Positions 14,576-29,309 of a stretch of DNA of 64,000 bases are shown in pieces. The notes beneath the pieces were generated by a model. That model worked only from the letters and a program-made list of their open reading frames with translations. It was not told the DNA's origin and did not search any database. Each line of letters starts with the position of its first letter. The stretch's first letter is position 1. Made by a program: the position numbers and the translations under genes. The DNA is taken from the NCBI GenBank assembly GCA_017853315.1, contig JAFMJW010000001.1, positions 960-64,959 on the forward strand, given 5' to 3'. The stretch is from Alphaproteobacteria bacterium (lineage in GTDB: Bacteria; Desulfobacterota; Binatia; UBA12015).

Positions 14576-14671
14576 CGCCGGGCTGGGGTCCGCCGGAGTC
14601 CGCCCGCGTCTTTGCGCGCGGGGCGCGAATCGGGGACAACCGGGTGCGCGGGTCGAGGCCCGCGACACCGG

Positions 14672-16915
14672 ATGGGAACCAGACTCGCCACGTTCCGGCG
14701 CCTGCTCCTCGGCCTCGGCCTGATCGCCGCGGCCGCCGCGGTGCTGCTCTCGACGGACCTGCGTTCCCGGCGCGGTGCGGGCGATGATCCGCACGCGGCC
14801 CGCGGCGGCGGCGCGGCCGGCGGAGGCGACGTCGGGCCCAAGCACCTCGCGATCCTGCAGCACTCGACGAGCCAGGTGATGGACGACATCCGCGAGGGCA
14901 TGATCGCGGGCCTCGCCTCGAAGGGCTGGGTGGCCGGCCCGCGGCTGGTCATCGACGTCTACAACGCGCACGCCGACCTGCCGACCGGCAACGCGATCGC
15001 GACCAAGCTCGCCTCGGGCGAGTACGACGTGGTCGCGACGATCTCGACGCCGATGCTGCAGGCCTTCGCGAACGCGAATCGCGAGGGACGGAGGAAGCAC
15101 GTGTTCGTCGGCGTGACCGCGCCGGTCGAGTCGGGCGTCGGCGTGAAGTCGCTGGACTCGACCGACAAGCCCGCCTGGATGACGGGCCTCGGCTCGGCCC
15201 AGCCGGTCGACGCGATCTTTCGCGAGGCGAAGCGCCTGCAGCCCGCGCTCCAGACGGTCGGGGTCGCCTGGAACCCGGCCGAGGTGAACTCCGAGATCTG
15301 CACGAAGCGTGCGCGCGAGGTCTCGAAGGAACTGGGGATGACGCTGGTCGAGGCGCCGATCGAGAGCGCGAAGGACGTGCCCGAGGCCGCGGGTTCGCTC
15401 GTGGTCCGCGGCGCACAGGCGATCTGGACCGGCGGCGACGCGACCGTGGTGCCGGCGATCGACGCGCTCGTCGCGGTCGCGACCAAGGCCGGCATCCCCG
15501 TCTTCTCCAACATGGCGGGGCAGGTCGAGCACGGCACGACCTTCGACCTGGGCGCGAACTACCGGGAGGTGGGGGCCGAGGGCGGCCGGCTGGTCGCGCG
15601 TCTTCTCGACGGCGAGGACCCGGCGGGGATCCCCGTGCGCAACTTCATGCCCGAGCGCCTCCTGTTGAACGAGAAGGCGGCGGCGTCGCTGCGCGACCGG
15701 ATCGTCTTCGACGACCGCACGCGTGCGGCGGCCGACGGCATCGTGGGCATGGACGGCACGCTGGTGAAGCACGCGAAGCCGCCGACGCCGTCGCGGGTGC
15801 CCGCAGCCACGGCGGCCGTCTCGTCCGCCGCGCCGGGATCGCCCGTCGACCCGAACGCGGCGGCCGCCCGCGGCGGGCCGCTCGGCGGCAGGCCCCGCAG
15901 CGTCTCGGCGATCGTCTACATCGAGACCCCGACCATGGAGGAGGGGTTCGCCGGGGTGAAGGACGGTCTCGTCGCGGCCGGTCTCGTCGAGGGGCGGGAC
16001 TTCGAGGTGCGGCTGCAGAGCGCGCAGGGAGACGTCGCGATCCTGAACGGGATCGTCGACGCCGCGATCGCGGCGTCCCCCGACGTGATCGTCGCGCTGT
16101 CGACGCCCGCGCTCCAGGCGGTCGCGAACAAGGTGGAGACCATCCCGGTCGTCTTCTCGATCGTCTCGAACCCGTTCATCGCGGGCGCCGGCAGGAGCGA
16201 CGACGACCACCTGCCCAACGTGACCGGCGTCTACATCTCGGGCCCCTTCGACCGCATGGCGCAGCTGCTCCACGACCACTTCCCGTCCTGGAAGCGGGTG
16301 GGCACGCTGTTCTGCCCGGCCGAGGTCAACTCGGTGTTCGTCGAGGGCAAGATGCGCGAGGCGCTCGCGCGCCGGGGCATCGAGCTCGAGTCGGTCGCCG
16401 CCTCGACCCCGGCCGACCTGCCCGACGCCGCGGCGGCGCTCGCGAGCCGGCCGATCGACGCGATCGTGCAGCTCTCCGACAACCAGGGCACCGCGGGCTT
16501 CCCCGCGATCGTCCGGGCGGCGCTGCGGGCTCGCAGGCCGCTCGTCGGCTTCACCCGGCAGACGGTCGAGCAGGGCGCGGCCTTCGCGCTCGCCGAGGAG
16601 TACCGCGACGCGGGTCGCGCCTCGGGCAGCTCGATCGCGCGGATCCTCCGGGGCACGCCGCCGTCGAAGATCCCGTTCCACGACTTCGACGACGCGGTGC
16701 TGGTCGCGAACGAGGCGAACGCGCGCGCCCTCGGGTTCACGCTGCCGCCCTCGCTGCTCGCGGCCGCCTCGGCGGACGCGAAGGCGCACGCGGGTGCGCC
16801 CGCCGAACCGGGTGCGAAGGCACACGCGGCCCCCGGCGCGTCGCCGGCCGCGGGGAAGTCGTCGTCGACACCGTCGCGCGGCCCGGCCGCGAACGCGGCC
16901 CCCGGGAGGCACTGA
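14672..16915 (+). CDS. ABC transporter substrate-binding protein with two tandem ABC_sub_bind (COG2984-type) domains
   Basis: ATG at 14672 followed by a TM/signal segment LLLGLGLIAAAAAVLL. Two homologous halves (aa ~70-390 and ~430-730), each with the ...VVATISTPMLQA... / ...VIVALSTPALQAV... pattern. Confidence 0.75.
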   Translation: MGTRLATFRRLLLGLGLIAAAAAVLLSTDLRSRRGAGDDPHAARGGGAAGGGDVGPKHLAILQHSTSQVMDDIREGMIAGLASKGWVAGPRLVIDVYNAHADLPTGNAIATKLASGEYDVVATISTPMLQAFANANREGRRKHVFVGVTAPVESGVGVKSLDSTDKPAWMTGLGSAQPVDAIFREAKRLQPALQTVGVAWNPAEVNSEICTKRAREVSKELGMTLVEAPIESAKDVPEAAGSLVVRGAQAIWTGGDATVVPAIDALVAVATKAGIPVFSNMAGQVEHGTTFDLGANYREVGAEGGRLVARLLDGEDPAGIPVRNFMPERLLLNEKAAASLRDRIVFDDRTRAAADGIVGMDGTLVKHAKPPTPSRVPAATAAVSSAAPGSPVDPNAAAARGGPLGGRPRSVSAIVYIETPTMEEGFAGVKDGLVAAGLVEGRDFEVRLQSAQGDVAILNGIVDAAIAASPDVIVALSTPALQAVANKVETIPVVFSIVSNPFIAGAGRSDDDHLPNVTGVYISGPFDRMAQLLHDHFPSWKRVGTLFCPAEVNSVFVEGKMREALARRGIELESVAASTPADLPDAAAALASRPIDAIVQLSDNQGTAGFPAIVRAALRARRPLVGFTRQTVEQGAAFALAEEYRDAGRASGSSIARILRGTPPSKIPFHDFDDAVLVANEANARALGFTLPPSLLAAASADAKAHAGAPAEPGAKAHAAPGASPAAGKSSSTPSRGPAANAAPGRH

Positions 16916-16919
16916 GGCG

Positions 16920-18197
16920 ATGGAGATTGCGCGCGACGTCCGCGACGGCGAGGCCACGCTCGCGCTCTCGGGCCGGCTCGACGCCGCCTGGAGCGACGGC
17001 GTCTCGAAGGCGCTCGACGAGTGCATCCGCGCGGGCGCCCACGTCGTCCGCCTCGACATGGGCGACGTGTCCTTCGTGAGCTCGGCCGGCTTGCGGGTCC
17101 TGCTCACGGCCTACCGGCAGCTCTCGAAGATCGGCGGGCGCCTCTCGATCGTGCGCGCCTCCGAGGCGGTTCGCTCGGTGCTCGACCTGGGCGGGCTCTC
17201 GACGCTCCTCGAGCTCCCCGCCGCGGGCTGGGCCGAGACCGCGCCCGCACCGCGCCCGGTCGCCGCAGCACGCGTGCCCGCCGCGACGGCGGAGTCTCCC
17301 TCGCGGCGCTTCGACCATGCCGGCGCCGCGGTCGAGGCCTGGTCGCTCGACCCCGCGGCCCGGATCCGGCTCCGCGCGCTGGGCGATCCCGACGCATCGC
17401 TCGCGGGACGGTCGACGGCGGCCGAACCGGTCCGCGTCGCCTTCGGGCACGCCGCGTTGGGCGTCGGCATCGGTGCCTTCGGCTCCGACGCCGCGGACTG
17501 TCGCGAGCGCTTCGGCGAGTTCCTCGCGGCGGGCGGCGCCGCGGTCTGCCTCGCGGGCGCCGACGACGCGGTGCCCGACTGGGTGGTCGCCACCGACCGA
17601 CTGGTGCCCGAGGTCGAGGTGCTGTGGGGACTGGTCGGCGAGGGAGCCTTCTCGGTCGAGGCCCGCTTCGAGGCCGCGCAGAGCGAGGCCGGCGCGCTCG
17701 GCTTCCTCGACGCGGCGACGCTCGCGCTCGAGGCGACGGGGGCCGGCGCCGCGGCGTTCGTGATGCTCGCCGAGACCGAGCAGCTGGTGGGTGCCGCGAT
17801 GCGCCTCTCGCCGCCGTCGTCGCGCGCCCGCGGGCCCGTCTTCGCGTTCCCCGAGGTGCGCGACCGGCTGCTGTTCACCGCCGAGCCGGCCTGGCCGGGC
17901 TCGCTCTCGCTCTCGATCGGCGTGGTCGCGCGCGACGTGCCGCCGCCGCTCGCTTCCCAGTTGCGCCCGCTCGGCGACGACGAGAGCCTCGCGGGCCACG
18001 TGCACGCGGCGGTGTTCCCCTATCGACCGCTGCGCAAGGGCCGGCTCGGAATCGGGGCGGCGCTGTCCGAGGTCTTCGAGCACCCGTCGGTGCAGGGACT
18101 CCTCCACCTGCTCCACGACGCCCGCGAGGGCGTCGGCGCCGGGCAGAGCGCCTTCACCCGCGGCATTCTCTGGGCGGCCCCGGTGGAGGCCTCGTGA
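16920..18197 (+). CDS. STAS-domain protein (anti-sigma-factor-antagonist fold) with a ~300-aa uncharacterised Ala-rich C-terminal domain
   Basis: ATG at 16920, 4 nt after the SBP stop. N-terminus ATLALSGRLDAAWSD...VVRLDMGDVSFVSSAGLRVLL matches the SpoIIAA/STAS fold. The remainder has no known family. Confidence 0.65.
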   Translation: MEIARDVRDGEATLALSGRLDAAWSDGVSKALDECIRAGAHVVRLDMGDVSFVSSAGLRVLLTAYRQLSKIGGRLSIVRASEAVRSVLDLGGLSTLLELPAAGWAETAPAPRPVAAARVPAATAESPSRRFDHAGAAVEAWSLDPAARIRLRALGDPDASLAGRSTAAEPVRVAFGHAALGVGIGAFGSDAADCRERFGEFLAAGGAAVCLAGADDAVPDWVVATDRLVPEVEVLWGLVGEGAFSVEARFEAAQSEAGALGFLDAATLALEATGAGAAAFVMLAETEQLVGAAMRLSPPSSRARGPVFAFPEVRDRLLFTAEPAWPGSLSLSIGVVARDVPPPLASQLRPLGDDESLAGHVHAAVFPYRPLRKGRLGIGAALSEVFEHPSVQGLLHLLHDAREGVGAGQSAFTRGILWAAPVEAS

Positions 18198-19123
18198 ACC
18201 TGCTGCTGGGCGCCCTCACGCTGGGCTTCATCCTCTCGCTGGTCGGGCTCGGCGTGTGGGTCTCGTTCCGCATCTTCAAGGTGGCGGACATCACGGTCGA
18301 CGGCTCGCTCACCTTCGGCGCCGCAATCACGGCCGCGCTGGTGGTCGTCCACGGCGTGAACCCGCTCGCCGCGACGCTCGCGGGGATGCTCGGGGGCATG
18401 CTCGCCGGCACGGTGACCGGGCTCCTGCAGACGCGCTTCCGGATCGACCCCCTGCTGTCGGGCATCCTCGTCATGACCGCGCTCTACTCGGTGAACCTGC
18501 GCGTCATGGGCCGCAGCAACGTGCCCTTCCTGGGCAAGCCGAGCCTGCAGACCTGGTGCGAGGAACTCGGCCGCTCCCTGCTGGGGGCACCGACGGTGGA
18601 CCTGTTCGGCTGGCCGGTCGCCGCGGGGGACCTCGCGGTGGTGATCCTCGCGGGACTCGCGGCCCTGCTCGTCGGCGCGGTCCTGTGGTGGTTCTTCCGC
18701 ACCGACCTCGGTACGGCGATGCGCGCCTCGGGCGACAACGCCCAGATGATCCGCGCGCTCGGCGCCGACGTCGAGCGCTACCGCATCCTCGGGCTCGCGC
18801 TCTCGAACGGCCTGGTCGCGCTCGGCGGCTCGCTGCTCGCGCAGTACCAGGGCTTCGCCGACGCGCAGATGGGCATCGGCATGGTCGTCTGGGGGCTCGC
18901 GTCGGTCATCATCGGCGAGGCGCTGACCGGGGCGCCGAGCCTCGGCTTCTCGATCGTCGGCACCGTCATGGGCTCGGTCTTCTTCCGCGAGCTGGTCGCG
19001 ATCGCGCTCGGCTTCGGGCTGAACCCGAACGATCTCAAGCTCGTGACCGCGGCCTTCGTGTTCGCGGCGCTGGTGCTGCCGTCGCTGCTGGGACGCGGTC
19101 GCGTGCAGGAGGTTCGCCCGTGA
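18194..19123 (+). CDS. ABC transporter permease (COG4120 / branched-chain-type fold)
   Basis: GTG at 18194 overlaps the upstream stop (GTGA). About 8 TM helices. Confidence 0.75.
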   Translation: MNLLLGALTLGFILSLVGLGVWVSFRIFKVADITVDGSLTFGAAITAALVVVHGVNPLAATLAGMLGGMLAGTVTGLLQTRFRIDPLLSGILVMTALYSVNLRVMGRSNVPFLGKPSLQTWCEELGRSLLGAPTVDLFGWPVAAGDLAVVILAGLAALLVGAVLWWFFRTDLGTAMRASGDNAQMIRALGADVERYRILGLALSNGLVALGGSLLAQYQGFADAQMGIGMVVWGLASVIIGEALTGAPSLGFSIVGTVMGSVFFRELVAIALGFGLNPNDLKLVTAAFVFAALVLPSLLGRGRVQEVRP

Positions 19124-19980
19124 GCGCGAGCGCCGAGGCCGCGCCGGCCGGGGCCGCCGCCGACGCGATGGTCCGCGTCCGCGGCGCCCGCAAGACCTTC
19201 AACGTCGGTACCCCCGAGGAAGTCCGCCCGATGCAGGGGATCGACCTCGACATCCCCGCGGGGCAGTTCGTGATCGTGCTCGGCGGCAACGGCTCGGGGA
19301 AGTCGACCCTGCTGAACGGGCTCGCCGGGACCTTCCGACTCGACGAGGGCACGATCGAGATCGACGGGCGCGACGTGACCCGCTGGCCGGAGCACCGGCG
19401 CGCGGCGCTGGTCGGCCGCGTCTTCCAGAACCCGTTCAGCGGCACGGCGCCGATGATGACGATCGCCGAGAACTTCTCGCTCGCGGCGAAGCGCGGCCGG
19501 TCGCGCGGGCTCGGCTGGGCGCTCAGCTCCTCGTTCCGCGACGAGCTGCGCGACCGCGTCCGCGGTCTCCGGATGGGCCTCGAGGACCGGATCGACACGG
19601 CGATCGGCGCGCTCTCGGGCGGCCAGCGCCAGGCCCTCACCCTGCTCATGGCGACCTGGATCGAGCCCCGGCTCCTCCTGCTCGACGAGCACACCGCCGC
19701 GCTCGACCCGAAGAGCGCAGACCAGGTCATCGCGCTCACCGACGAGATCGTCTCGTCGCGCCGGCTGACCACGCTCATGGTGACCCACGCCATGCAGCAG
19801 GCGGTGAACCTCGGCGACCGGATCCTGATGATGCACCGGGGCAACGTCCTCCACGACGTGAGCGGCCCGACCAAGCGCCGCCTGCGCGTCGACGACCTGC
19901 TCGCCCGCTTCGAGGACGTGCGCCGGCGCGAGCTGCTCGACGAGGGTGCGGCGGCGCTCCTCGCGCGCGCCTACGTCTGA
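19120..19980 (+). CDS. ABC transporter ATP-binding protein
   Basis: Walker A GGNGSGKST, signature LSGGQRQ, Walker B LLLLDEHTAALD, H-loop VTHAM. GTG at 19120 overlaps the permease stop; ATG at 19168 is an alternative start. Confidence 0.8.
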   Translation: MSASAEAAPAGAAADAMVRVRGARKTFNVGTPEEVRPMQGIDLDIPAGQFVIVLGGNGSGKSTLLNGLAGTFRLDEGTIEIDGRDVTRWPEHRRAALVGRVFQNPFSGTAPMMTIAENFSLAAKRGRSRGLGWALSSSFRDELRDRVRGLRMGLEDRIDTAIGALSGGQRQALTLLMATWIEPRLLLLDEHTAALDPKSADQVIALTDEIVSSRRLTTLMVTHAMQQAVNLGDRILMMHRGNVLHDVSGPTKRRLRVDDLLARFEDVRRRELLDEGAAALLARAYV

Positions 19981-19996
19981 CCGCCCGGCGGGCGCG

Positions 19997-21187
19997 TCAG
20001 GCGATCCGCAGCACGAGCATCGAGACGTCGTCGTCGAAGTCGTGGCGCCCCTGCTCGGCGCGCACCACGTCGAGCACGCGGTGGATGTCGGCGGTCGGCG
20101 ACGTCCGCTCGCGGCCGACGATCTCGAAGAACTCCTCGAGCGTCATCATCCCGCCCGCGGGCCGCGTGACCTCGTACGCGCCGTCGCTGAAGATCCAGAG
20201 CGCCGCGTCCGGCGGCACGGTCGTCCGCCCGCCCGCGTAGCGCGTGCCGGGCAGCGCGCCGATCGGCGCTCCCTGCGCGCGGAGCGGCTCGGCCGCGGCA
20301 CTCCCGGCGACGAGCAGCGCGGGCGGATGCCCTGCGCTCGACCACGACAGGCTGCGGTCGGACGGACGGAAGACGCCGTACCAGATCGTGAAGTACATGT
20401 CGTTCTGCCGATCCATCTGGAAGGCGTCGTTCAGCGCGGCGAGCACGGCGGCGGGGTCGCGGAAGTCGACGCCGGGCAGCGTCTGCGTGCCGAGCACGTT
20501 CATCGCGGAGACCGAGAGCAGGGCCGCGCCGACGCCGTGGCCGCACACGTCGAGCACGTAGGCGGCGAGGTGGTCGTCGTCGATCCAGTGATGGCCCAGC
20601 GAGTCGCCCCCCAGCGAGGTCGAGGGCACGAACTCCCAGGCCGACTCGATCGATCCGGAGAGGGGCACGGGCAGGAGCGAGCGGACGTAGTCGGCCGCCT
20701 CGCCGAGCTCGGCGGCGAGCGCCTGCTGGCTCGCGAGCAGGTCCTGGTAGGCTTCGTTGCGCTCGAGCAGGTGGATGTAGGCCTGCGAGTGGTAGCGGAT
20801 GCGCGCGACCAGCTCGATGCGGTCGGGCAGTTTCACCAGGTAGTCGTTCGCGCCGAGCGCGAAGGCCTCGGCCTTCGTCGTCGCCTCCTCCTTGCTCGAC
20901 AGCACGATGAGCGGCACCTCGCGCGTGGCCGGCGTCTCGCGGTAGCGGCGCACCAGCGTGAGCCCGTCGATGCCCGGCATGACGAGATCCTGGAGGATCA
21001 GCGTGGGCCGGAGCTCCACGGCCCGCGCGATCGCCTCGGCCGGGTCGCCGCACCAGTGCAGCTCGACGTCGGACTCGGAGGCGAGCATGCGCTTCACCGC
21101 CTCGGCGACGATCCTCTGGTCGTCGACCAGAAGGACGACGACGCGGTGCCCGGCGGCACCCGCGGGCCGGGCCGGCGCGTCGCTCAC
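19997..21187 (-). CDS. Response regulator (REC) fused to a PP2C-type Ser phosphatase (RsbU/SpoIIE-like)
   Basis: GTG at 21187 (verified) overlaps the cheB stop by 4 nt. REC: VLLVDDQ...LILQDLVMPGIDG...PLIVLSSK. PP2C: GGDSLGHHWIDDDHLAAYVLDVCGHGVGAA...IWYGVF...FSDG. Confidence 0.8.
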   Translation of the reverse strand: MSDAPARPAGAAGHRVVVLLVDDQRIVAEAVKRMLASESDVELHWCGDPAEAIARAVELRPTLILQDLVMPGIDGLTLVRRYRETPATREVPLIVLSSKEEATTKAEAFALGANDYLVKLPDRIELVARIRYHSQAYIHLLERNEAYQDLLASQQALAAELGEAADYVRSLLPVPLSGSIESAWEFVPSTSLGGDSLGHHWIDDDHLAAYVLDVCGHGVGAALLSVSAMNVLGTQTLPGVDFRDPAAVLAALNDAFQMDRQNDMYFTIWYGVFRPSDRSLSWSSAGHPPALLVAGSAAAEPLRAQGAPIGALPGTRYAGGRTTVPPDAALWIFSDGAYEVTRPAGGMMTLEEFFEIVGRERTSPTADIHRVLDVVRAEQGRHDFDDDVSMLVLRIA

Positions 21188-22224
21188 GGCGCGCCCGGGG
21201 CCGCGAGGCGGCGGCAGGCCGCGGCGGCGCGCGCGGCGATCGCGTCGACCGGCAGCACCTCGACCGCGGCGTCGAGCCGGACGGCCGCACCCGGCATTCC
21301 CCACACGACGCTGGTCCCCTCGTCCTGCGCGATCGTGTGCCAGCCCAGGCCGCGCAGGCGCGCGAGTCCTGCGGCGCCGTCGCGCCCCATGCCCGTCAGC
21401 AGCACCGCGCATCCCGGTCGCGAGGCGTGGTCCGCGGCGCTCGCGAAGAAGGCGTCGACCGAAGGGCGATAGGGAGTCTCCACGGGCTCGCGTACGTAGC
21501 GGAAACGGCCGTCGGACCCCAGCACGAGGTGATCGTTGGTCGCGGCGACCAGGACGCGGCCCGGCTCCGGGCGGTCGCCCGCCGCGATCGTCCGGACCCG
21601 CAGCGCCGACTGTCCGTCGAGCCAGTCGGCGAGGCCGTCGGCGAAGTGCTCGTCGACGTGCTGGACGATCACGACCGAGGCGGGCAGGTCGGCCGGCAGG
21701 TCGCGCAGGATGCGGGCGAGCGCTCCCGGGCCGCCGGTCGACGAGCCGATCGCGAGCAGGATCGGCCGGCTCGCCGCGGGCGAACACGGCGCAGCGGTCG
21801 TCGCCGCCGGGGCGGCCGCCACGGGCTCGCGCCCGACGAGCCGCCCGATCGTGCCGATCTTGCGGACCAACTCGTCCGCGCCGCGCACGTCGCCGTCGCG
21901 GCCGAGCACCGGGGTCGCGACCGCGTCGAGGGCGCCGTGGCTCATCGCCTCGTAGACCTTCGACAGGTTGCCCTGCACGGTCGCGGTGACGACCAGGATC
22001 GGGCACGGGTGGTCGCGCATGATGAGGCGCGTCGCCTCGACTCCGTCCATCGTCGGCATGACGAGGTCCATGAGCACGACGTCCGGCCGGTCCGACGCGC
22101 AGAGCGCGACCGCCTCGGCGCCGTCCTTCGCGACCCAGGCGACCTCGAGCCCCGGGGCGGCGACGATCGTGCGGCGCAGCGCCTCGGCGGCGATCCGCAG
22201 GTCGTTCACGATGCCGACCCTCAC
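21184..22224 (-). CDS. cheB: Chemotaxis response regulator protein-glutamate methylesterase CheB (REC + CheB_methylest)
   Basis: GTG at 22224 (verified; GTGA overlap with the cheA stop). REC DVVLMDLVMPTMDG; methylesterase LLAIGSSTGGPGAL...VIVQH...LLTGMGRDGAAGL. Confidence 0.85.
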   Translation of the reverse strand: MRVGIVNDLRIAAEALRRTIVAAPGLEVAWVAKDGAEAVALCASDRPDVVLMDLVMPTMDGVEATRLIMRDHPCPILVVTATVQGNLSKVYEAMSHGALDAVATPVLGRDGDVRGADELVRKIGTIGRLVGREPVAAAPAATTAAPCSPAASRPILLAIGSSTGGPGALARILRDLPADLPASVVIVQHVDEHFADGLADWLDGQSALRVRTIAAGDRPEPGRVLVAATNDHLVLGSDGRFRYVREPVETPYRPSVDAFFASAADHASRPGCAVLLTGMGRDGAAGLARLRGLGWHTIAQDEGTSVVWGMPGAAVRLDAAVEVLPVDAIAARAAAACRRLAAPGAP

Positions 22225-24638
22225 GGCGCCGCGGCCTCGCCGATCAGGTCGGCCACCGTGCGGGCGAGCGTCTCGTCGCGGAAGGCGGCCTTCGTGACGT
22301 AGTGGTTCGCGCCGGCCTCGAGGCCGCGCAGCCGGTCCTCCTCGCGGTCCTTGTACGAGACGATCACGACCGGGAGGTCGCGCAGGCGGGCGTCGGCCCG
22401 CACCGCGCGGACGAGTTCGATGCCGGTCATCCGCGGCATGTCGACGTCGCTCACGAGCAGGTCGTAGCTCCCGGCGCGGAGCGCGTTCCACGCCTCGAGT
22501 CCGTCGACCGCGACGTCCACCTCGTAGCCGCGCTGCTCGAGGAGCTGGCGCTCGACCTCGCGGACGGTGATCGAGTCGTCCGCGACGAGGATGCGCTTGG
22601 CCTGGCGCACGGCCCGGGGCGCGATCCGCGCGCGCATCCCGCCGCCTTCGAGGCGCGCCTCGATCGAGAGCACGAGGTCGTCGACGTCGAGCACGAGCAG
22701 CGGCGAGCCGTCGTCGAGCGTCGACGCCGCCGACACGTCGGCGACCTTGCCGAGGCGCGCGTCCAGCGGCCGGACGACGATCTCCCGCTCGCCCACGAAG
22801 CCGTCGACCTCGAGCGCGAAGCGCCGCGACCCGTCCGAGAGCACGACTGCCGCGCACTCGTCGCCGCGGGGGCGCTCGCCGCCGAGCTCGAGCAGGTCGC
22901 GGGCGACCACGAGCCCGACGGCCTCCCCGTCGACCGGCACGACCGCGTGCCCCTCCGAGGTGCCGACGGAGTCGGCGGGCACCCGCAGCGCGCGGTCGAT
23001 CCGCGCGAGCGGGACCGCGAAGGGCTCGCCCGCGACCTCGACCAGCAGCACCCGCAGCACCGAGCGGGTGACCGGCAGCTGGAGCTCGAAGACCGTGCCC
23101 TCCCCCGGTCGCGTGCGAACGCGCGCCGTCCCGCCCATCTGCTGCATCATCGCGAGCACGGCGTCGAGGCCGACGCCGCGGCCCGACACGTCGGTCACCT
23201 TCTCGGCGGTCGAGAAGCCGGGCAGGAAGAGGAACTCGAGCAGCTCGCTCTCCCGCAGCCGCGAGGCGACCTCGGCGGTCGCGAGCCCGCGCTCGACGAT
23301 CGTCGTGCGCAGGCGCTCGGCGTCGATGCCGCGGCCGTCGTCGCGCACCGTGACGGCGAGGCGCCCGGCCCGGTGCGCGGCCTCGATCGAGAGCCGTCCC
23401 TCCGCGGGCTTGCCCGCCGCGGCGCGGACCTCGGGCGGCTCGAGGCCGTGGTCGACCGCGTTGCGGACGAGGTGGCCGAGCGGCGCCTCGAGCCCCGCGA
23501 GCACGTCGCGGTCGACCGGCACGTCGCGCCCCGCGACCTCGAGGCGGACCTGCTTGCCGAGAGCGCGCGCGAGATCCCGCACTTGGCGTTGCAGTCCGGC
23601 CACGGCGTCCGAGAACGGGCGCATGCGGGTCGCGATCGCCTCGCCGTAGAGGCGCTCGGCGAGAGGCGCGCTGCGCCGGGCGATCGCGTCGATCGCCTCG
23701 GTGCGCTCCGCGAGCGCGTGGCGGCCGAGGTCGACCTCCCGAGCGAGAGCCTCGACCTGCGCCTCGACCTCCGCGAGCGGCCTCTGCGCCGCGATCGCCT
23801 CGCGCAGCCGTCCGAGCCGCGCGGCGATCCCGGTCTGGCGCCGCTGCACCTCGCGAACCGCGTCGGCCGCGGGGCCGATCGAGCGGGCTTCGACCAGTGC
23901 TTCGGCCGCGAGGCCGGCGAGGCGGCCCAGCGTCTCCGGCGAGACCTTGACCGCGCGCTCCTGCGGCTCGGCGGTGGCGCGACCTGCCGCGACCGGGGGG
24001 GACGCCGGCGCGGCTGCTCGCCCCGCGTCCGCCGAAGCCTGCGTCGGCACGGTCGTCGGGGCCGAGCCCGCCGTCGACCCGGACGCGGCCACCGCCACCG
24101 CGGAAGCGAGGGCGGGTTCGCCGCCCTGCCTCGCGGCTTCGCTGGGCGCGGCCGGTGCGACGGGTGCCGGCGACCCGGGCCGTGGCGCGTCCGCAGCCGG
24201 CGGCGGCGCGGCCGCGCCGTCTCTCGGGCGTGCCTCTCCGCGCAGCGCCGCGAGCGTGTCGCGCAGGCCCGCCTCGATCGTCGCGCGCTCGCCCGCGCAC
24301 GCGGCGAGCCACGCGTCGAGATCCTCGACCGGCACGTCGCGCAGCCGCGTGAGCCAGTCGACCACCGCGAGGAACGAGTCGAGCTGCTCCGGCTCGATGG
24401 CGTGGCCGGGGGCCGCGAGCATCGCCTCCTCGAGCAGGTGCGCGAGGCCGACGGCCTCGTCGAGTCCCACGAGACGCGCAGCGCCCTTCATCGAGTGTGC
24501 GGCGCGCATCAGCGGTTCGATTCCGGACGCGTCCTGCACGCCGCGCTCGAGGCGGAGCAGACCCTCGGCGAGCGCGCCCGCGTGTTCCTCGACCTCCGCG
24601 AGGAAGAGGTCGTAGAGCGAGGCGTCGACGCCGCTCAT
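22221..24638 (-). CDS. cheA: Chemotaxis histidine kinase CheA with a C-terminal receiver domain (HPt-dimerisation-HATPase_c-CheW-REC)
   Basis: ATG at 24638 (verified). HPt AAHSMKGAARLVG, kinase core VRNAVDHG...DDGRGID...GRGVGLD, CheW-like domain, C-terminal REC ILVADDS...LLVSDVDMPRMTG...VVIVSYK. Confidence 0.85.
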   Translation of the reverse strand: MSGVDASLYDLFLAEVEEHAGALAEGLLRLERGVQDASGIEPLMRAAHSMKGAARLVGLDEAVGLAHLLEEAMLAAPGHAIEPEQLDSFLAVVDWLTRLRDVPVEDLDAWLAACAGERATIEAGLRDTLAALRGEARPRDGAAAPPPAADAPRPGSPAPVAPAAPSEAARQGGEPALASAVAVAASGSTAGSAPTTVPTQASADAGRAAAPASPPVAAGRATAEPQERAVKVSPETLGRLAGLAAEALVEARSIGPAADAVREVQRRQTGIAARLGRLREAIAAQRPLAEVEAQVEALAREVDLGRHALAERTEAIDAIARRSAPLAERLYGEAIATRMRPFSDAVAGLQRQVRDLARALGKQVRLEVAGRDVPVDRDVLAGLEAPLGHLVRNAVDHGLEPPEVRAAAGKPAEGRLSIEAAHRAGRLAVTVRDDGRGIDAERLRTTIVERGLATAEVASRLRESELLEFLFLPGFSTAEKVTDVSGRGVGLDAVLAMMQQMGGTARVRTRPGEGTVFELQLPVTRSVLRVLLVEVAGEPFAVPLARIDRALRVPADSVGTSEGHAVVPVDGEAVGLVVARDLLELGGERPRGDECAAVVLSDGSRRFALEVDGFVGEREIVVRPLDARLGKVADVSAASTLDDGSPLLVLDVDDLVLSIEARLEGGGMRARIAPRAVRQAKRILVADDSITVREVERQLLEQRGYEVDVAVDGLEAWNALRAGSYDLLVSDVDMPRMTGIELVRAVRADARLRDLPVVIVSYKDREEDRLRGLEAGANHYVTKAAFRDETLARTVADLIGEAAAP

Positions 24639-25300
24639 CCGACCGCCTCCGCCAGGCGGGCGGCGAGCCTTCGTTCGTCGAGCAGCGACACGCGCCGGCC
24701 CTCTTCCTCGACGAGGCCCGAGCTCGCGGAGCCGCTCGCGAGCGCGACGGTCGAAGGGGCCGGGCGGACGTCGGACTCCGGCACGAGTCGCAGGCCCGCG
24801 ATCTCGTCGACGGTCAGCACCCAGCCCTGCCCGAGCAGCGAGACCACGAGCAGTCGCGACCGGAGGTCGGGAGTGCCCTCCACGGCGGGCACGTCGAGGA
24901 GCGCTCCGGGGTCGCAGCAGGGGAGCAGCGTCCCTCCCGCGTTCACGAGGCCCATGAAGGCGGCGCTGCTCCGGTGGGGCACGCGCCGCACCGGCCTCGG
25001 CTCGAGCACCTCGACCGCGAGGGCGGCCGCGAGCCCGAACCACTCCGAGCGGACCCGGAAGACGAGGAGGGCGCGCGCACCCGACGCCGCCTCCTCCGAA
25101 TCCTCGCCGAGGCGCGCGGACCATTCCTCGAGGTAGCCTCCCGGCGACGGACGATCGAGCAGCGCGCGCCCGCCCTCGGAATGCGCGGGGCAGTTCCGGC
25201 AGTGGACGAGAGCCTCGAGTTCGGGACAGCTGCGGTCGCCGTCGACGCCGATCCTCGCCCAGCAGCGCTCGCCGGCCGACGCGGGAAGCGCGCGCGTCAC
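24635..25300 (-). CDS. CheW-like coupling protein with an N-terminal Cys4 motif (C-x10-C-x8-C-x2-C)
   Basis: GTG at 25300 overlaps the cheR stop (GTGA); its stop overlaps the cheA ATG (ATGA). N-terminus ERCWARIGVDGDRSCPELEALVHCRNCP, then a CheW domain LLVFRVRSEWFGLAAALAVEVLEP. Confidence 0.6.
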   Translation of the reverse strand: MTRALPASAGERCWARIGVDGDRSCPELEALVHCRNCPAHSEGGRALLDRPSPGGYLEEWSARLGEDSEEAASGARALLVFRVRSEWFGLAAALAVEVLEPRPVRRVPHRSSAAFMGLVNAGGTLLPCCDPGALLDVPAVEGTPDLRSRLLVVSLLGQGWVLTVDEIAGLRLVPESDVRPAPSTVALASGSASSGLVEEEGRRVSLLDERRLAARLAEAVG

Positions 25301-26685
25301 GACCGCGCCTCGATCCGGGCCGCGCGCGCACGAAACCGCGCCGCGCCGGGACGGTCGCCCGCGCGCTCGGCGATCGCGGCCAGGTGCACGAGCGCCTCCT
25401 CGCAGGAGGGGTCGAGGTAGACGGCGCGCTCGAGGGCGGCACGGGCCTCGTCCTCCCGGCGCTCCGCGACCAGCAGTACTCCCTGCAGGAGATGCGCCTC
25501 GGCGGAGGTGGGCTCGTGCTCGAGGTGCGCGCGCACGAGGCGACTCGCCTCGTCGAGGCGGCCCGTGTCGGCGAGCCGTCGCGCCTCGGCGAGCGACGGC
25601 CGGGTTTCGGGGGCGACGCCGCGGTCGATCGCGACGCTGCCCGTCGCCTCGGCGCCGCCCCCTCTCGCGACCTCGCCGGACGCGACCCGCCCGCCGTCGG
25701 CGGCCTCTCCTGCCCGCGCCTCGGCCGCTTCGGGGCGAGTCGCGCTCGACCGGACCGGAGCAGCGGACGGCTCGCGCGTCGCCCGGATCGGCGGCAGGGG
25801 CTGCCTCGCCGTCGCCTGCTGCGCCCCGGTGCCCGCGCGCGCGGCCCCCCCGGCCGTCGCCCGCGCGGTCTCGCGGAACGGCTCCGCGCGCTCGTCCGCC
25901 GTGGCCGCGAACGCCCCCGGTGGCCCGAAGGGGCGAAATCCGAGCGCGAGCAGCGTCGGGACCTCGCTGTGGCCGACCACCAGCATGCCGCCGGGCGCGA
26001 GCAGCGAACGCAGTGCTGCGACCACCTGCCGTCGCGCGTCGCGACCCATGTAGACGAGCGCGTTGCGGCAGAAGATCGCGTCGAACGGCCCGTCGCCCGC
26101 GAGGACGGAGGCGTCGAGCAGGTTCAGGCATCGGAACTCGACCGACTCGCGAGCCTCCGACGGCGCCTCGACGAACTCGCCGCCGTCCTCGTCCGGCCGC
26201 CTCCGGAAGCGACGCGCGGCGGGCAGGTCCTGGTTGCCGCGGAAGGCCCGCAGCGGGTAGACGCCGCGGCGCGCGACCGCGAGCGCGCCCGGATCGAGGT
26301 CGCAGGCGAGCACCCGGAAGTCGCCCGGCGAGATCCCGCCGTCGAGCAGGGTCGCGGCGATCGACCACGGCTCCTCGCCCGTGGCGCACGGGAAGCTCAG
26401 CACCCGCAGCGGGAGGTGACGTTCGCGCGCCGACCGCGTGGCGAGCTTGCCGAGGAGCTCGTACGGGGCCCGGTCGCGGAACAGCCAGGTCTCGTGCACG
26501 AGAAGGCGCGCGAGGAAGCCGTCCGCCTCGGCCGGGTCGCTGCGCAGCCGCGCGACCAGTCCGTCCTCGTCCACGCCGAGCGCCGCGCAGCGCTCGACGA
26601 CGGCCGCGTCGAGCGCTCCCGCGCCCAGCGTGGAGGCGTCGAGGCCGGCGACCTCCGCGACGAATTCCGCCGCAGGGCGACTCAC
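25297..26685 (-). CDS. cheR: Chemotaxis protein methyltransferase CheR fused to C-terminal TPR repeats
   Basis: GTG at 26685 (verified; GTGA overlap with the cheW stop). CheR_N plus SAM-MT motifs LRVLSFPCATGEEPWSIA...IFCRNALVYM. C-terminal TPR-like LEHEPTSAEAHLLQGVLL...AVYLDPSCEEALVHLA. Confidence 0.8.
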   Translation of the reverse strand: MSRPAAEFVAEVAGLDASTLGAGALDAAVVERCAALGVDEDGLVARLRSDPAEADGFLARLLVHETWLFRDRAPYELLGKLATRSARERHLPLRVLSFPCATGEEPWSIAATLLDGGISPGDFRVLACDLDPGALAVARRGVYPLRAFRGNQDLPAARRFRRRPDEDGGEFVEAPSEARESVEFRCLNLLDASVLAGDGPFDAIFCRNALVYMGRDARRQVVAALRSLLAPGGMLVVGHSEVPTLLALGFRPFGPPGAFAATADERAEPFRETARATAGGAARAGTGAQQATARQPLPPIRATREPSAAPVRSSATRPEAAEARAGEAADGGRVASGEVARGGGAEATGSVAIDRGVAPETRPSLAEARRLADTGRLDEASRLVRAHLEHEPTSAEAHLLQGVLLVAERREDEARAALERAVYLDPSCEEALVHLAAIAERAGDRPGAARFRARAARIEARS

Positions 26686-27131
26686 GCCCCTGCTCCCGCG
26701 GCCGCCCGCAACAGCTCTTCGATCTCGGGAGGCAGAAGCCCCTCGGGCCGCACGAGCTGGACGAGGTCCTCTCCCTCGGAGCCGATCGAGCCGAGCCAGC
26801 GCGCGTCGGGCGAGTCGATCGGCGGCTTCGAGAGCCGCGCCGGGTCGACCTCGATCGTGTCGACGACCCGCTCGGCGCGCAGTCCCACCGGGCCCTGCGC
26901 CCGGCGCAGCACCAGGATGCGGGTGCCGAGCGCCTCGCGGCACGGCGCGCCGCCGGCCAGCGTGCCGAGGTCGAGCACCGGCACGAGCCGGCCGTGGAGG
27001 CGCAGGATTCCCGCGACGGCAGGCGGAGCGGCCGGCACCGGTCGCAGTGCGACCGACGGGACGACCGTCTCGACGTCCCGCGCGTCGAACCCCCAGAGCG
27101 AATCCCCGACCCGGCAGCAGACGACCAGCAC
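26682..27131 (-). CDS. cheW: Chemotaxis coupling protein CheW
   Basis: 149 aa single CheW domain (ILRLHGRLVPVLDLGTL...). Non-ATG (GTG-type) start at 27131. Confidence 0.75.
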   Translation of the reverse strand: MLVVCCRVGDSLWGFDARDVETVVPSVALRPVPAAPPAVAGILRLHGRLVPVLDLGTLAGGAPCREALGTRILVLRRAQGPVGLRAERVVDTIEVDPARLSKPPIDSPDARWLGSIGSEGEDLVQLVRPEGLLPPEIEELLRAAAGAGA

Positions 27132-27146
27132 GTCCCACCGCCTGGG

Positions 27147-29309
27147 TCAGCCGGTGCGGAAGCGCGACATCTCGGTCTCGATCCCGCTCACCGCGCCGCG
27201 CAGGCGAGTCGCCGCCTCGCCGAGGTCGCTCACCGCGTCGGCCGAGCGCCGGGCGACCTCGGTGAGCTGCATCATCGCCTCGTCGATCTGCCGCGCCCCG
27301 GCCGCCTGCGCCTGCATGCCGTCGTTCACGGCGGCAAACCGCGGGATGAGCGACTGCACGCCGGAGAGGATCTCGGCGAAGCGCTCGCCTGTCGCGGCGG
27401 CCTCGGCGACGCGCCGGCGGACCTCCTCGGCGAAGCGGTCCATCTCCATCACGCCGCTCGCGACCGAGCCCTGCATCTCGCGGACGATCCGCTCGATGTC
27501 GAGCGAGGCAACCGCCGTCTGGTCCGCGAGCCGGCGGATCTCGCGCGCGACCACGGCGAAGCCGCGGCCGGCCTCGCCCGCCTTCTCGGCCTCGATCGCC
27601 GCGTTCAGCGAGAGCAGGTTCGTCTGGTCGGCGACCTTGGTGATCGTGGTGACGACCGAGCCGATGCTCGCGGCGCGCTCGCTGATCGCGGCGAGCTTCG
27701 CCGAAACCCCGCCGGTCGACTCGGCGAGCCGCACCATCGCGCCCTCGAGGTCGCCGAGGCTCGAGCGGCCCGTGTCGGCCAGGCGCGCGGTCTGGTCGCT
27801 CGCTTCCTTCACGTCGGAGATCGTCCCGACCAGGTCCTGGGCCGTCGCGGAGATCTCGCGCACGGCGGCCGCGATCTGGCTCGTCGACGCGCCGACGTCG
27901 GCCACGGTCGCCTCCTGCGTCCGGGCGGCGGCCGCGACGCCCGTCGCCGTGGACACGAGATCGACGCTCGCCTGCTGCACGCGGCCGACCAGCTGGCGCA
28001 GGGAACCCAGCATCGAGCGCACGGCGAGCAGGAGGTCGCCGGTCTCGTCGGATCCCGTCGCGCCGATCTCGACGGTCAGGTCGCCCGCGGCGACGCGGTC
28101 CGCCGCGTGGGCCGCCGCGGCGACGCGGTGGACGACCCTCTGCACGGTCCGCAGCGCGAGCCCCAGCGCGAGCAGCACGCCCGGGATCGCGATCCACAGC
28201 ACCCGGTTGCGCGCGGCGACGAGCGGGGCGAGCACCTCCATCTCGTCGACCTGCATCAGCAGTCGCCAGCTCCCGGTCTGGATCCGGGTGCCGACGTAGT
28301 ACCGCTCCGGGCCGCCCTGTCTCCCCGGGGCCAGCGAGAAGAAACTCCCGTCCTGGTCGCGGAAGAGGCCCTCGAGCTCGCTCGCGATGGGAGTCTCCTC
28401 GATGCGGTGCGTGACGAGCCCGGGCTCGGCGGTGGACGCGATGACGCGGCCGCGCCGCGAGATCAGGACGAACTCCGCGCTCTTGTAGGGTCGCTTGGCC
28501 GCGAGGTCCGCGGAGATCCGGCTCACGCTGCGGTCGATGCCCGCGACGCCGACGAAGCGCTCGCCGATCTCGATCGGCCAGGTGGTCTCGACGATCAGCT
28601 CGCCCTCGTAGTCGTAGGGCTCGGTGATCATGTACCGCTCGGGATCCTCGTCGCGGCCCCAGTTCACGTCCCACAGCCGGCTCACGCCGCCCGGGAGGTT
28701 GATGCCGGTGATCTCGGGCAGGCGCGCGTAGCGATTCTTCACGCCGCGGTACCAGAGCCCGTCGTCCATGCCGGTGAGCGGCTTGACCGAGATCTCCGCG
28801 GCGTCCCGCCTCGCCCGGAACCAGTAGGGAAGGAACCGGCCCTCGGCGTCGGTCGAGCCAGCGGGCAGCTTCGCGTTCGCCGGGTCGCGGTCGTGGCCGT
28901 CGGCGTCCTTCTCGTAGCCGAAGTACGCGCCGTAGGCGCCGGGCACGGCCGCGAGCATCCTGCGGGCGAACTCGCTCGAGACCGCGCGCTGTCCGAACAG
29001 GCCGGCGGCCTGCGCCGTCGCCATCGTGTGCGCCATCGCGACGATCGTCGCGCTCTCGCGCTCGATCGAGGACGCCGCCTCCGCGACGCGGTCGCGCAGC
29101 TCGGCCTCGGTCTGCAGCCGGATGCTCGCCTCGAAGTTCCGCAGCAGGTACCAGAGCAGTCCGGCGAGCAGGGCCACGAGCGGCAGCACGCTCAGCAGGA
29201 CGAGTTTCGCGCGCAGGCCCACCCTACGCGCACCCGGGCCGTGGCCCGGGCTTGCCGGGGTCGCGGAGGACGGCATCGCCGCCTCCCCCTCCCGGTAGGC
29301 TTCAGGCAC
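27147..29309 (-). CDS. Methyl-accepting chemotaxis protein with a periplasmic Cache-like sensor, HAMP and MA domains
   Basis: TM1 [21 protein letters not shown], ~280-aa periplasmic domain, TM2, HAMP, and the highly conserved signalling domain [39 protein letters not shown] at 29309 or ATG at 29276. Confidence 0.8.

Follow-up and report, generated by a model that had tools for sequence, protein, structure and literature searches.

A protein in which a STAS domain is joined to a C-terminal domain of about 300 aa (STAS-X) appears to be a fixed, cytoplasmic fourth component of an ABC importer of the PF04392 type, whose tandem substrate-binding protein (SBP) is anchored in the membrane. The chances are about even that STAS-X is a phospho-switched component of this importer and that the switch is set here by a Che-like pathway. 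Control of the transporter by a signalling pathway is probably direct and not exerted via gene expression, since the operon adjoins genes for the switch kinase and phosphatase in many phyla. If so, the output of the partner switch, and in the window also of the Che-like pathway, would be the post-translational control of a transporter-linked protein, with no sigma factor involved. A sequence-only reading of the 64-kb stretch of DNA analysed (the window) had proposed that STAS-X is a second substrate of the adjacent kinase/phosphatase pair, tying transport to chemosensory input, and this proposal is supported by the analysis below, as none of its refuting conditions that sequence comparison could address went against it. 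No published description of a STAS-X importer system was found in the literature.

Table 1. Features of the ABC operon and the neighbouring Che-like operon (positions in the window)
Feature	Position	Strand	Details
Tandem SBP	14672..16915	+	747 aa; PF04392 E 2.2e-88; GC3 0.96
SBP PF04392 domain 1	aa 58-341, nt ~14843-15694	+	Pfam
SBP PF04392 domain 2	aa 411-700, nt ~15902-16771	+	Pfam
STAS-X	16920..18197	+	425 aa; STAS PF01740 E 1.1e-16, aa 6-96
STAS-X STAS domain	aa 1-100, nt 16920-17219	+	invariant S54, S55 (S55 codon 17082-17084)
STAS-X linker, disordered	aa ~101-127	+	
STAS-X ALDC-like domain	aa ~128-425, nt 17301-18194	+	fold match; invariant residues (see text)
STAS-X conserved His codons	H360 17997-99; H362 18003-05; H396 18105-07	+	
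ABC permease, BPD_transp_2	18194..19123	+	309 aa; PF02653 E 8.7e-31
ABC ATPase	19120..19980	+	286 aa from GTG 19120; PF00005 E 3e-27
Spacer between convergent stops, GC-rich palindromic	19981..19996	.	16 nt, CCGCCCGGCGGGCGCG; direct reading
REC-PP2C phosphatase	19997..21187	-	SpoIIE E 4.5e-42; Response_reg E 6e-16; last gene of Che-like operon
CheB	21184-22224	-	Pfam; boundaries by GC3
CheA-REC hybrid	22221-24638	-	Pfam; boundaries by GC3
CheW-like	24635-25300	-	Pfam; boundaries by GC3
CheR-TPR	25297-26685	-	Pfam; boundaries by GC3
CheW	26682-27131	-	Pfam; boundaries by GC3
MCP	27147-29309	-	Pfam; boundaries by GC3; Che-like core overall 21184..29309
Small single-domain STAS	29302..29634	-	110 aa; PF01740 E 5.7e-18
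RsbW-like Ser kinase, HATPase_c_2	29631..30083	-	150 aa; PF13581 E 1.3e-24; first gene of Che-like operon

Positions 14672-19980 of the plus strand hold a translationally coupled four-gene ABC operon, as seen from the junctions and from a third-position GC content of 0.92-1.00, which marks four plus-strand genes in succession. When the junctions were read directly, the SBP stop (TGA, 16913-15) was found to lie 4 nt ahead of the STAS-X ATG at 16920, with GGGAGG upstream; the STAS-X stop overlaps the GTG start of the permease in GTGA (18194-97), and the permease stop overlaps the GTG start of the ATPase in a second GTGA (19120-23) preceded by AGGAGG. The coupling of the first three genes described earlier was thus borne out. 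The ATPase has an alternative ATG start at 19168 and a conserved C-terminal extension of ~38 aa past the NBD core, with PDB alignments stopping near aa 245. Between the ATPase and REC-PP2C stops there are 16 nt, not 17 as had been claimed, and a pattern scan of this spacer found no canonical terminator.

The SBP carries an N-terminal signal/anchor, two PF04392 (ABC_sub_bind) stretches that each cover approximately the full profile, an Ala/Pro linker between them and a low-complexity tail, in agreement with the internal duplication first noticed in the sequence. The two halves are only 31% identical (E 8e-23), indicating an old duplication rather than a repeat introduced by the assembly; among relatives, the number of domains ranges from one to five. 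PDB relatives of the SBP are 3lkv, 6hni and 3lft, and ligand-bound structures of SBPs of the PF04392/COG2984 family contain L-Trp, L-Tyr or L-Phe (PMC10443332). The SBP scored 289.9 bits against the NCBIfam TrpX model, under the cut-off of 390. The SBP, BPD_transp_2 permease and ATPase belong to the same families as those of other PF04392/COG2984 importers (KEGG ABC.X4, TrpX-type). In contrast to those importers, the SBP here is doubled and misses the TrpX equivalog cut-off, a STAS-X gene is added and signalling genes are linked to the operon.

The STAS domain of STAS-X scores over the NCBIfam cut-off for TIGR00377 and falls short of the MlaB sequence model. Residues S54, S55 and G57 were invariant in all 159 family members compared, and S55 aligned with SpoIIAA Ser58 and RsbV Ser56, so that a conserved putative phospho-acceptor, the lack of which would have refuted the sequence-only reading, is present. 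When the two STAS proteins of the window were aligned, as that reading had suggested, a VSSAGLR phospho-site motif was found in both, and the small STAS protein and the STAS domain of STAS-X shared 34% identity. As in the SpoIIAA/RsbV - SpoIIAB/RsbW - SpoIIE/RsbU modules, the STAS fold has a phospho-acceptor Ser starting helix alpha2, and an HATPase_c_2 kinase and a PP2C phosphatase are encoded alongside. SpoIIAA and RsbV have an Asp before the phospho-Ser, whereas STAS-X has an invariant Ser; moreover, STAS-X differs from these modules in being fused to a 300-aa enzyme-like domain and encoded inside an ABC importer operon, without a sigma factor.

The C-terminal ~300 aa had been described as an Ala-rich domain of unknown family. 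The profile search proposed for it returned no match in Pfam (E<=10) or NCBIfam, nor was there any among PDB sequences. In contrast, the fold could be recognized as of the acetolactate decarboxylase (ALDC)/C11orf54 type (Foldseek E 5e-5) with a conserved His triad, and the Ala-richness merely mirrors the GC content of 72-76%. H360-x-H362, H396, D400, E200, D220 and E285 were invariant in 159/159 sequences. The domain is probably metal (Zn)-binding, as the HxH...H triad and acidic residues resemble those of ALDC (PMC9090609) and C11orf54 (PMC12337341). ALDC and C11orf54/BKGD are Zn-dependent beta-keto-acid decarboxylases (PMC9090609, PMC12337341), and both (PF03306 and DUF1907, respectively) share with STAS-X the HxH...H motif, together with acidic and Arg residues that are conserved close to the C-terminus. 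The third His lies 34 residues past HxH in STAS-X compared to 10-11 in ALDC; the STAS-X domain is also distinguished by its length of ~300 aa with insertions, by undetectable sequence similarity and by being nearly always STAS-fused. At 50% identity the domain forms 671 clusters in total, nearly restricted to STAS fusions; among the best 150 matches, approximately 136 are 390-450 aa long and have the domain from about residue 100 onwards.

A survey of genome context was carried out on 84 non-redundant STAS-X loci from Verrucomicrobiota, Acidobacteriota, Planctomycetota, 'Deltaproteobacteria' and others, 46 of which were well flanked (>=6 kb each side). Wherever the contig extended that far, STAS-X lay between the SBP and permease genes in all of these loci, with recurrent gaps of 3-4 nt or 4-nt overlaps as in the window. 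The STAS insertion is therefore neither unique nor debris. Fusion debris was ruled out by this fixed position, by a frame without internal stops or breaks, and by end-to-end homologs (99-100% coverage against most of those listed).

The proposed link to a kinase/phosphatase pair was found to be recurrent. An RsbW-like kinase was present in 34 and a PP2C in 23 of the 46 well-flanked loci, and the flanks contained neither in 11, where S55 is invariant too. In the first 1 kb beyond the operon ends, compared to 4-8 kb away, gene density (genes per 10 kb) was 2.79 versus 0.14 for kinases (20-fold), 1.60 versus 0.14 for PP2C (11-fold) and 3.03 versus 0.14 for small STAS genes, an 11- to 22-fold range over the three gene types. 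The partner-switch genes are frequently co-directional with the operon and abut it, for example as a kinase+STAS fusion following the ATPase, or as REC-PP2C, kinase, STAS and SBP genes in succession; two loci (L004 and L018) repeat the layout of the window, with the ABC operon convergent on a REC-PP2C gene that ends a Che cluster. Many loci have one or more small STAS proteins besides STAS-X, any of which could be the principal substrate of the kinase; approximately ten have a kinase and no further STAS protein nearby; in L002, L026, L044, L075 and others, STAS-X is the sole STAS protein beside a kinase and/or PP2C. The flanking kinases are 30-45% identical over ~140 aa to that of the window, and REC-PP2C proteins of 11 other loci are 44-52% identical to the REC-PP2C of the window in the PP2C domain. 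Apart from the genes named, no family, sigma factors included, was found in more than ~20% of the loci. The input domains of the PP2C proteins vary (REC, GAF, cNMP-binding, HAMP), and chemosensory input is thus one among several input types.

The window contains one RsbW-like kinase, one PP2C and two STAS proteins. The kinase gene is separated from the ABC operon by 9.6 kb and the PP2C gene converges on it, indicating that neither is co-transcribed with the operon. The start of the small STAS gene overlaps the kinase stop in ATGA, and the REC domain of REC-PP2C retains the hallmark DD, D, S and K residues. CrsR and HsbR are REC-PP2C regulators. STAS and Ser-phosphatase genes also occur in the Che-like clusters of stage-1/2 F7 systems (PMC7184735). 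Like these systems, the window combines a CheA-driven pathway with an RsbW-like kinase, a STAS protein of the anti-sigma-antagonist type and a REC-PP2C. In the known Che/REC-PP2C cases the targets are sigma factors or c-di-GMP enzymes, whereas the conserved neighbour here is a STAS-bearing ABC importer.

From these features we infer a switch in which the RsbW-like kinase would phosphorylate STAS-X at Ser55 and REC-PP2C would remove the phosphate, the activity of REC-PP2C being governed by the CheA-REC/MCP pathway, whose genes lie between those of the kinase and the phosphatase. By analogy with SpoIIAA, MlaB (T52E) and All4160, unphosphorylated STAS-X would be the engaged, active form and would dock on a partner, most likely the transporter ATPase and/or its own C-domain; docking may then activate import, or else the step in which the decarboxylase-like domain is the first to act on the compound in the cytoplasm. 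MlaB of MlaFEDB is likewise a cytoplasmic STAS protein from an ABC transporter operon, and the C-terminal extension of the ATPase is a further likeness to the Mla system. Thr52 of MlaB, at the phospho-site position, lies within the interface with the MlaF ATPase, and T52E weakens binding; regulation of MlaB by phosphorylation is so far a proposal (PMC7367683). In contrast to MlaB, which serves an MlaE/MCE lipid system, STAS-X belongs to a PF04392/BPD_transp_2 binding-protein-dependent importer and has an extra C-domain, with dedicated kinase and phosphatase genes alongside that are absent from Mla. In Anabaena, the STAS-glycosyltransferase All4160 is controlled by the PP2C HenR and the kinases Alr3423/All2284 (bioRxiv 10.64898/2026.04.08.717354). 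All4160, too, is a fusion of an enzyme domain with a phosphorylatable STAS domain at the N-terminus, and its control by a PP2C and Ser kinases with a non-sigma output is what is proposed for STAS-X. It differs in its enzyme domain (glycosyltransferase versus ALDC-like), in having no transporter context, in lineage, and in that its regulation is established by experiment.

The same module could serve as input and not as output. The ABC system and STAS-X would then form a sensor in which binding of the imported compound, or of a metabolite of it, to the decarboxylase-like domain alters the availability of the STAS domain to the RsbW-like kinase. The kinase would thereby be diverted from, or freed for, a target encoded elsewhere, for example a sigma factor or a different enzyme; transport status would feed the partner switch instead of being controlled by it. 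The antagonist type of the STAS domain, the ligand/metal-site signature of the C-domain and the varied PP2C input domains, which suggest a signalling hub, are consistent with this, and so are the additional small STAS proteins and the fusions of kinase and STAS in many loci, which would be expected of competing partners. However, no candidate for a downstream target is found recurrently near the module, no sigma-70-type gene adjoins the kinase in the window, and STAS-X, locked and coupled between SBP and permease, looks like a typical complex subunit and not a diffusible regulator. We consider a sensor unlikely. It is also rather improbable that STAS-X does no more than act first on the imported compound in the cytoplasm, as a Zn-dependent decarboxylase or hydrolase that is tethered to the transporter by its STAS domain in the manner of MlaB-MlaF and is free of phospho-regulation, with the neighbouring partner-switch genes serving the small STAS proteins and other targets. 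The ALDC/C11orf54 fold with its invariant His/Asp/Glu set, the fixed slot in the operon and the well-flanked loci lacking both kinase and PP2C nearby fit such an enzyme, and MlaB shows that an ABC transporter can have a STAS subunit that is not known to be phosphorylated (PMC7367683). In contrast, the complete invariance of S54, S55 and G57, the enrichment of kinase, PP2C and small STAS genes at the operon borders, and the loci in which a kinase and phosphatase have no STAS protein but STAS-X near them argue for the phospho-switched component.

That the ABC and Che-like operons are unrelated and merely abut, with no shared regulation, is highly improbable. Their convergence makes co-transcription impossible and the kinase is distant, as such a coincidence would have it, while the scan for promoter and terminator elements bearing on the relationship of the operons detected none and argues neither way. 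However, the combination recurs in several phyla, with abutting and co-directional gene orders as well as the two identically convergent loci, and enrichment falls steeply with distance; these comparative data largely refute a coincidental neighbourhood.

The ABC operon of the window was found to carry the genes for a substrate-binding protein (SBP), for STAS-X (a STAS domain followed by a C-domain of approximately 300 aa), for a permease and for an ATPase, and the presence of a PF04392 SBP, a BPD_transp_2 permease and an ABC ATPase in a single operon identifies it as a PF04392/COG2984 importer. The GC content of the window is 70-78%, and long spurious ORFs are therefore abundant; third-position GC (GC3) was used to tell real genes from shadow ORFs. 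The N-terminus of the SBP is a hydrophobic signal/anchor segment, and the two halves of the protein are just 31% identical (E 8e-23), which indicates that the duplication is old and excludes a recent tandem duplication. Against the TrpX equivalog for tryptophan specificity (NF041285), the SBP scored 289.9 bits, summed over its two domains, which is below the cut-off of 390. PF04392 SBPs solved with ligands were found to bind aromatic amino acids (PMC10443332).

The STAS-X gene is joined to its neighbors as the sequence-only reading had described, with the TGA of the SBP followed after 4 nt by the ATG at 16920, which has GGGAGG in front of it, and with a GTGA overlap with the permease gene at 18194-97. 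An additional GTGA, preceded by AGGAGG, joins the permease and ATPase genes at 19120-23. The ATPase carries a C-terminal extension of approximately 38 aa past the nucleotide-binding domain (NBD) core (19861-19980; RLRVDDLLARFEDVRRRELLDEGAAALLARAYV), conserved among orthologs. The same reading had placed the end of this operon 17 nt from the convergent REC-PP2C gene; the adjacency held, and the distance measured between the two stops was 16 nt. This spacer in its entirety is a GC palindrome (CCGCCCGGCGGGCGCG). No canonical intrinsic terminator was found in the spacer region on either strand, and a scan of 13900-20300 for promoters and terminators found none; at 73% GC this outcome is to be expected, and it is uninformative. 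Two genes upstream of the SBP were rejected as members of the module, being conserved only in a close relative (locus L046, MAG 'bacterium REEB422'). This was the closest contig found and is syntenic with the window upstream of the SBP.

Features of the window (window coordinates; an empty cell means that no value was given)
Feature	Position	Strand	Length (aa)	Remarks
ORF	4224-6290	+		No Pfam match
ORFs upstream of SBP	13126-13536; 13979-14575	+		No Pfam match
Tandem SBP	14672-16915	+	747	PF04392 (ABC_sub_bind) at aa 58-341 and 411-700, both nearly full-length; Pfam E 2.2e-88
STAS-X	16920-18197	+	425	PF01740, E 1.1e-16
Permease	18194-19123	+		BPD_transp_2
ABC ATPase	19120-19980	+
Spacer between convergent stops	19981-19996			16-nt GC palindrome
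REC-PP2C	19997-21187	-		Last gene of Che-like operon
CheA-REC hybrid	22221-24638	-
CheR	25297-26685	-		C-terminal TPR region
MCP	27147-29309	-		N-terminal ~390 aa without any Pfam domain match
Small STAS	29302-29634	-
RsbW-like kinase	29631-30083	-		First gene of Che-like operon
META-domain protein and fatty-acid hydroxylase	30094-31313	-		Immediately upstream of kinase
ORF	31537-33756	-		No Pfam match
Two large proteins	35602-37956; 44008-46425	-		DUF4215, and Disintegrin and beta-helix domains
ORF	41334-43958	+		No Pfam match

The convergent phosphatase gene closes a minus-strand Che-like operon whose genes are, in transcription order, RsbW-like kinase, small STAS, MCP, CheW, CheR-TPR, CheW-like, CheA-REC, CheB and REC-PP2C, with two CheW-type genes in all and 4-nt overlaps at several of the junctions. 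All hallmark residues are kept in the REC domain of the phosphatase. The partner-switch inventory of the 64-kb window amounted to one kinase, one PP2C and two STAS proteins, and no sigma-70-type gene adjoins the kinase in the window. Che clusters carrying STAS and Ser-phosphatase genes were already known (PMC7184735).

The STAS domain of STAS-X was found to be of the SpoIIAA/RsbV antagonist type, with 63.4 bits against TIGR00377 (cut-off 53.45), and it scored 19.9 bits against the MlaB model NF033618, below the cut-off of 90. Residues S54, S55 and G57 are invariant in 159 of 159 unique family members. In an alignment with the two Bacillus proteins SpoIIAA and RsbV, S55 fell on the serines at which these are phosphorylated, Ser58 and Ser56, respectively, so that the putative phospho-acceptor serine on which the earlier proposal depended is conserved throughout. 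When the two STAS proteins of the window were aligned, the small STAS and the corresponding domain of STAS-X shared 34% identity, and the motif VSSAGLR was common to both.

The AlphaFold2 model of STAS-X, built with 82 homologs, had a pLDDT of 92.2 and a pTM of 0.88, and disorder was confined to the linker at aa 101-115. By structure comparison alone, the C-domain matched the overall fold of the Zn-decarboxylases acetolactate decarboxylase (ALDC) and DUF1907. By sequence, the C-domain was not a member of PF03306, TIGR01252 or DUF1907, and it had no match in Pfam even at E<=10, in agreement with its earlier description as a domain of unknown family, and no family match in NCBIfam. Against the PDB there was no sequence match and the profile search returned STAS proteins only, while hhalign against bona fide ALDC gave a probability of 1.5%. 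ALDC and C11orf54 (DUF1907) are Zn-dependent beta-keto-acid decarboxylases with an HxH...H triad and catalytic Glu and Arg (PMC9090609, PMC12337341). Among the 159 unique members, the invariant residues of the C-domain were E200, D220, E285, H360, H362, H396 and D400, all checked against the codons of the window. In the model, strands E358-366 and E393-397, the last of the C-domain, carry the three His, as in ALDC, and the third His follows 34 residues past the HxH in STAS-X compared to 10-11 in ALDC. The C-domain is ALDC-like in fold, has an invariant signature resembling a metal site and probably binds metal, and with this fold and the invariant His triad it may be a new enzyme or a sensor of metabolites.

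In three Planctomycetota loci, alsS adjoins the STAS-X operon, and the small STAS, the kinase and alsS are co-directional (L001:2330-5612; L035:2-337 and 5701-8558; L067:3-2717). The alsD/ALDC gene lies beside alsS in these loci. Both genes are bona fide, with scores in L001 of 771 bits for alsS against NF006378 (cut-off 510) and 204.9 bits for ALDC against TIGR01252 (cut-off 180.65). A fourth locus has a more distant acetolactate-synthase-like TPP enzyme within a partner-switch operon of different arrangement (L010:2778-6760). This linkage was confined to 4 of 84 loci and is absent from the window; taken with the ALDC-like fold, it hints at acetolactate-type chemistry, on acetolactate-like alpha-hydroxy-beta-keto acids.

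When a set of 5.8 billion proteins was searched with STAS-X, 184 significant relatives were found. Among the 120 listed, most were 400-445 aa in length with 37-80% identity and 99-100% query coverage, and all names were generic ('STAS domain-containing protein' or 'anti-anti-sigma factor'). The C-domain by itself matched 671 clusters at 50% identity in 1.84 billion representatives, 509 of them at E<=1e-10. Approximately 136 of the best 150 matches were proteins of 390-450 aa in which the domain begins at about residue 100, and the others were short and fragment-like, which indicates that the C-domain is found essentially only behind a STAS domain. The family extends over at least five phyla.

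Gene context was determined around five database proteins and in 80 species-representative genomes of Verrucomicrobiota, Acidobacteriota, Planctomycetota, 'Deltaproteobacteria', Binatia and some Gammaproteobacteria, Prosthecobacter MAGs among them, by scoring six-frame ORFs with HMMs made from the proteins of the window. In all 84 non-redundant loci (numbered L001 onward) the order was SBP, STAS-X, permease and ATPase, as far as the contig extends, with STAS-X inside the SBP-permease interval on every contig that reaches both genes, and short gaps or overlaps between these genes recurred. Full-length homologs and fixed synteny exclude fusion debris or a one-off insertion as the origin of STAS-X. 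SBPs with two domains were encoded in 36 loci, those with three in 13, those with a single domain in 11 and those with four or five in two, and in six further loci zero domains were counted inside the search window. The defining feature of the module is therefore the STAS-X gene, and a doubled SBP is common, not defining. A Terrimicrobiaceae contig (L063) has two STAS-X genes approximately 3 kb apart, at 1682-3442 (minus) and 6442-7674 (plus), one of which alone is in an ABC operon. No published description of this architecture was found in literature searches. These findings show that the STAS-X module is widespread and undescribed, not peculiar to the genome of the window, and broader than the sequence-only reading had proposed.

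Of the 46 loci in which the operon is flanked by 6 kb or more in both directions, 34 have an RsbW-like kinase, 29 a small STAS, 23 a PP2C and 35 a kinase or a PP2C. As an internal control, gene density was followed with distance from the operon ends in the 68 loci with a complete operon. Within 1 kb, the densities per 10 kb were 2.79 for the kinase, 1.60 for PP2C and 3.03 for the small STAS, compared to 0.14 for each at 4-8 kb, differences of 20-fold, 11-fold and 22-fold, respectively. Kinases flanking the operon elsewhere show 30-45% identity to the window kinase over the whole length of the latter, and in 11 loci the PP2C domain is 44-52% identical to that of the window. In a coarse check, no further recurrent family such as a sigma factor was present in more than approximately 20% of loci among clustered flanking ORFs, the single-linkage clustering having lumped shadow and low-complexity ORFs into large clusters.

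The linkage to kinase and PP2C is thus close and extends over several phyla, the input domains of the PP2C being interchangeable, and the arrangement of these genes varied among loci. The window layout, with the ABC operon convergent on a REC-PP2C that closes a Che cluster, was found again in L004 and in a Verrucomicrobiia MAG (L018). REC-PP2C, kinase, STAS and the four ABC genes are co-directional in that order in L031, L057, L011 and L020, and in a slightly different order in L062. A PP2C+kinase fusion lies downstream of the ATPase in L026 and L044 (13.1-14.8 kb), and L002 has the kinase, the ABC operon and a convergent GAF-PP2C without other STAS. Prosthecobacter and relatives have a kinase+STAS fusion directly behind the ATPase, together with a convergent cNMP-PP2C. 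In the Prosthecobacter-type loci L006, L015, L032, L045, L048, L053, L054, L058 and L061, this fusion is one ORF of approximately 250 aa that begins a few nt past the ATPase stop, at about 12.9-13.8 kb in 21-kb loci; L048, L053, L054 and L058 are the loci from Prosthecobacter MAGs.

We infer that the kinase and PP2C are cognate to STAS-X, and the computational tests available all favor the original proposal of STAS-X as a candidate second substrate of this pair, tying the transporter to chemosensory input. In the reading to which we give an even chance, a phospho-switched STAS-X engages the importer under a Che-like pathway. Ser55 would be phosphorylated by the kinase and the phosphate taken off by PP2C, whose activity, in the genome of the window, would be set by the MCP/CheA-REC pathway via the REC domain. 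Unphosphorylated STAS-X would be the active form that engages a partner, by analogy with SpoIIAA, MlaB T52E (PMC7367683) and All4160 (bioRxiv 10.64898/2026.04.08.717354). Judged by the place of STAS-X in the operon and by the example of MlaB, the most likely partner is the transporter ATPase, whose conserved C-terminal extension is a lead for docking there, not a test of it. The C-domain would then bind or convert the imported compound. Input to the switch would be of the chemosensory type here and, in other lineages, would enter through a phosphatase that carries GAF, cNMP-binding or HAMP domains. Only tentatively do we suggest that STAS-X is a stoichiometric phospho-gated subunit docked on the importer NBDs, its Zn-decarboxylase-like domain binding or converting the substrate that leaves the transporter.

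It is unlikely that STAS-X and the transporter form a sensory input to the switch with the target elsewhere; a C-domain acting as metabolite sensor would suit this arrangement, and the coarse survey of flanking ORFs showed no recurrent target such as a sigma factor. That STAS-X is a docked enzyme without regulation is distinctly improbable; the fold and His triad are compatible with it, and the invariant S55 and the nearby kinase genes are to be set on the other side. A coincidental neighborhood is hardly credible beside the steep fall in gene density within a few kb of the operon.

As proposed, the module resembles a partner switch in its working. STAS-X has in common with anti-sigma antagonists the STAS fold, the TIGR00377 match, the Ser at the acceptor position and the kinase and PP2C alongside. 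In contrast, these antagonists are single-domain proteins of approximately 110 aa with a sigma-factor target, whereas STAS-X has a second domain and no such target was found beside the window kinase or recurrently across loci. Like MlaB, STAS-X is a STAS protein encoded within an ABC transporter operon, but it does not belong to the MlaB family, whose transporter is of the MlaE/MlaD type, and the ATPase extension recalls the C-terminal extension of MlaF that contacts MlaB. Work on MlaFB raised phosphorylation control of ABC-transporter STAS subunits, which was proposed for MlaB and not shown (PMC7367683). The nearest mechanistic precedent is All4160, a STAS-glycosyltransferase. With ALDC and DUF1907, the C-domain has the fold in common but not sequence membership.

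For the many Che-like pathways with a REC-PP2C, and the many partner-switching modules outside the Firmicutes, that lack an assigned output, the module offers a candidate that is conserved and non-transcriptional, namely an ABC importer to which a putatively phosphorylatable STAS protein belongs. If STAS-X were indeed a docked, phospho-gated subunit, a chemosensory-type pathway would exert post-translational on/off control of a nutrient importer and its first catabolic step. Che-like and partner-switching systems would thereby gain a new class of output, and STAS-X would be a natural example of a phospho-regulated STAS subunit as proposed for MlaB. Because the kinase and phosphatase are encoded beside the transporter, the question of STAS-subunit phosphorylation can be addressed directly. 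The family is present in Prosthecobacter MAGs, and this genus, of which cultured representatives exist, offers experimental access to it.

Elsewhere in the window, the five ORFs without Pfam match have a strong coding signal (GC3 of 0.91-0.97), and three of them encode 688-874 aa. The two large proteins with DUF4215, Disintegrin and beta-helix domains, taken with a GC content of 72-76%, would point to a Myxococcota-like source. A fatty-acid hydroxylase gene, found on the same strand as the window kinase, also occurs approximately 8 kb upstream of the STAS-X gene in L006/L050 (a weak match, E 2.7e-5), which is probably a coincidence.
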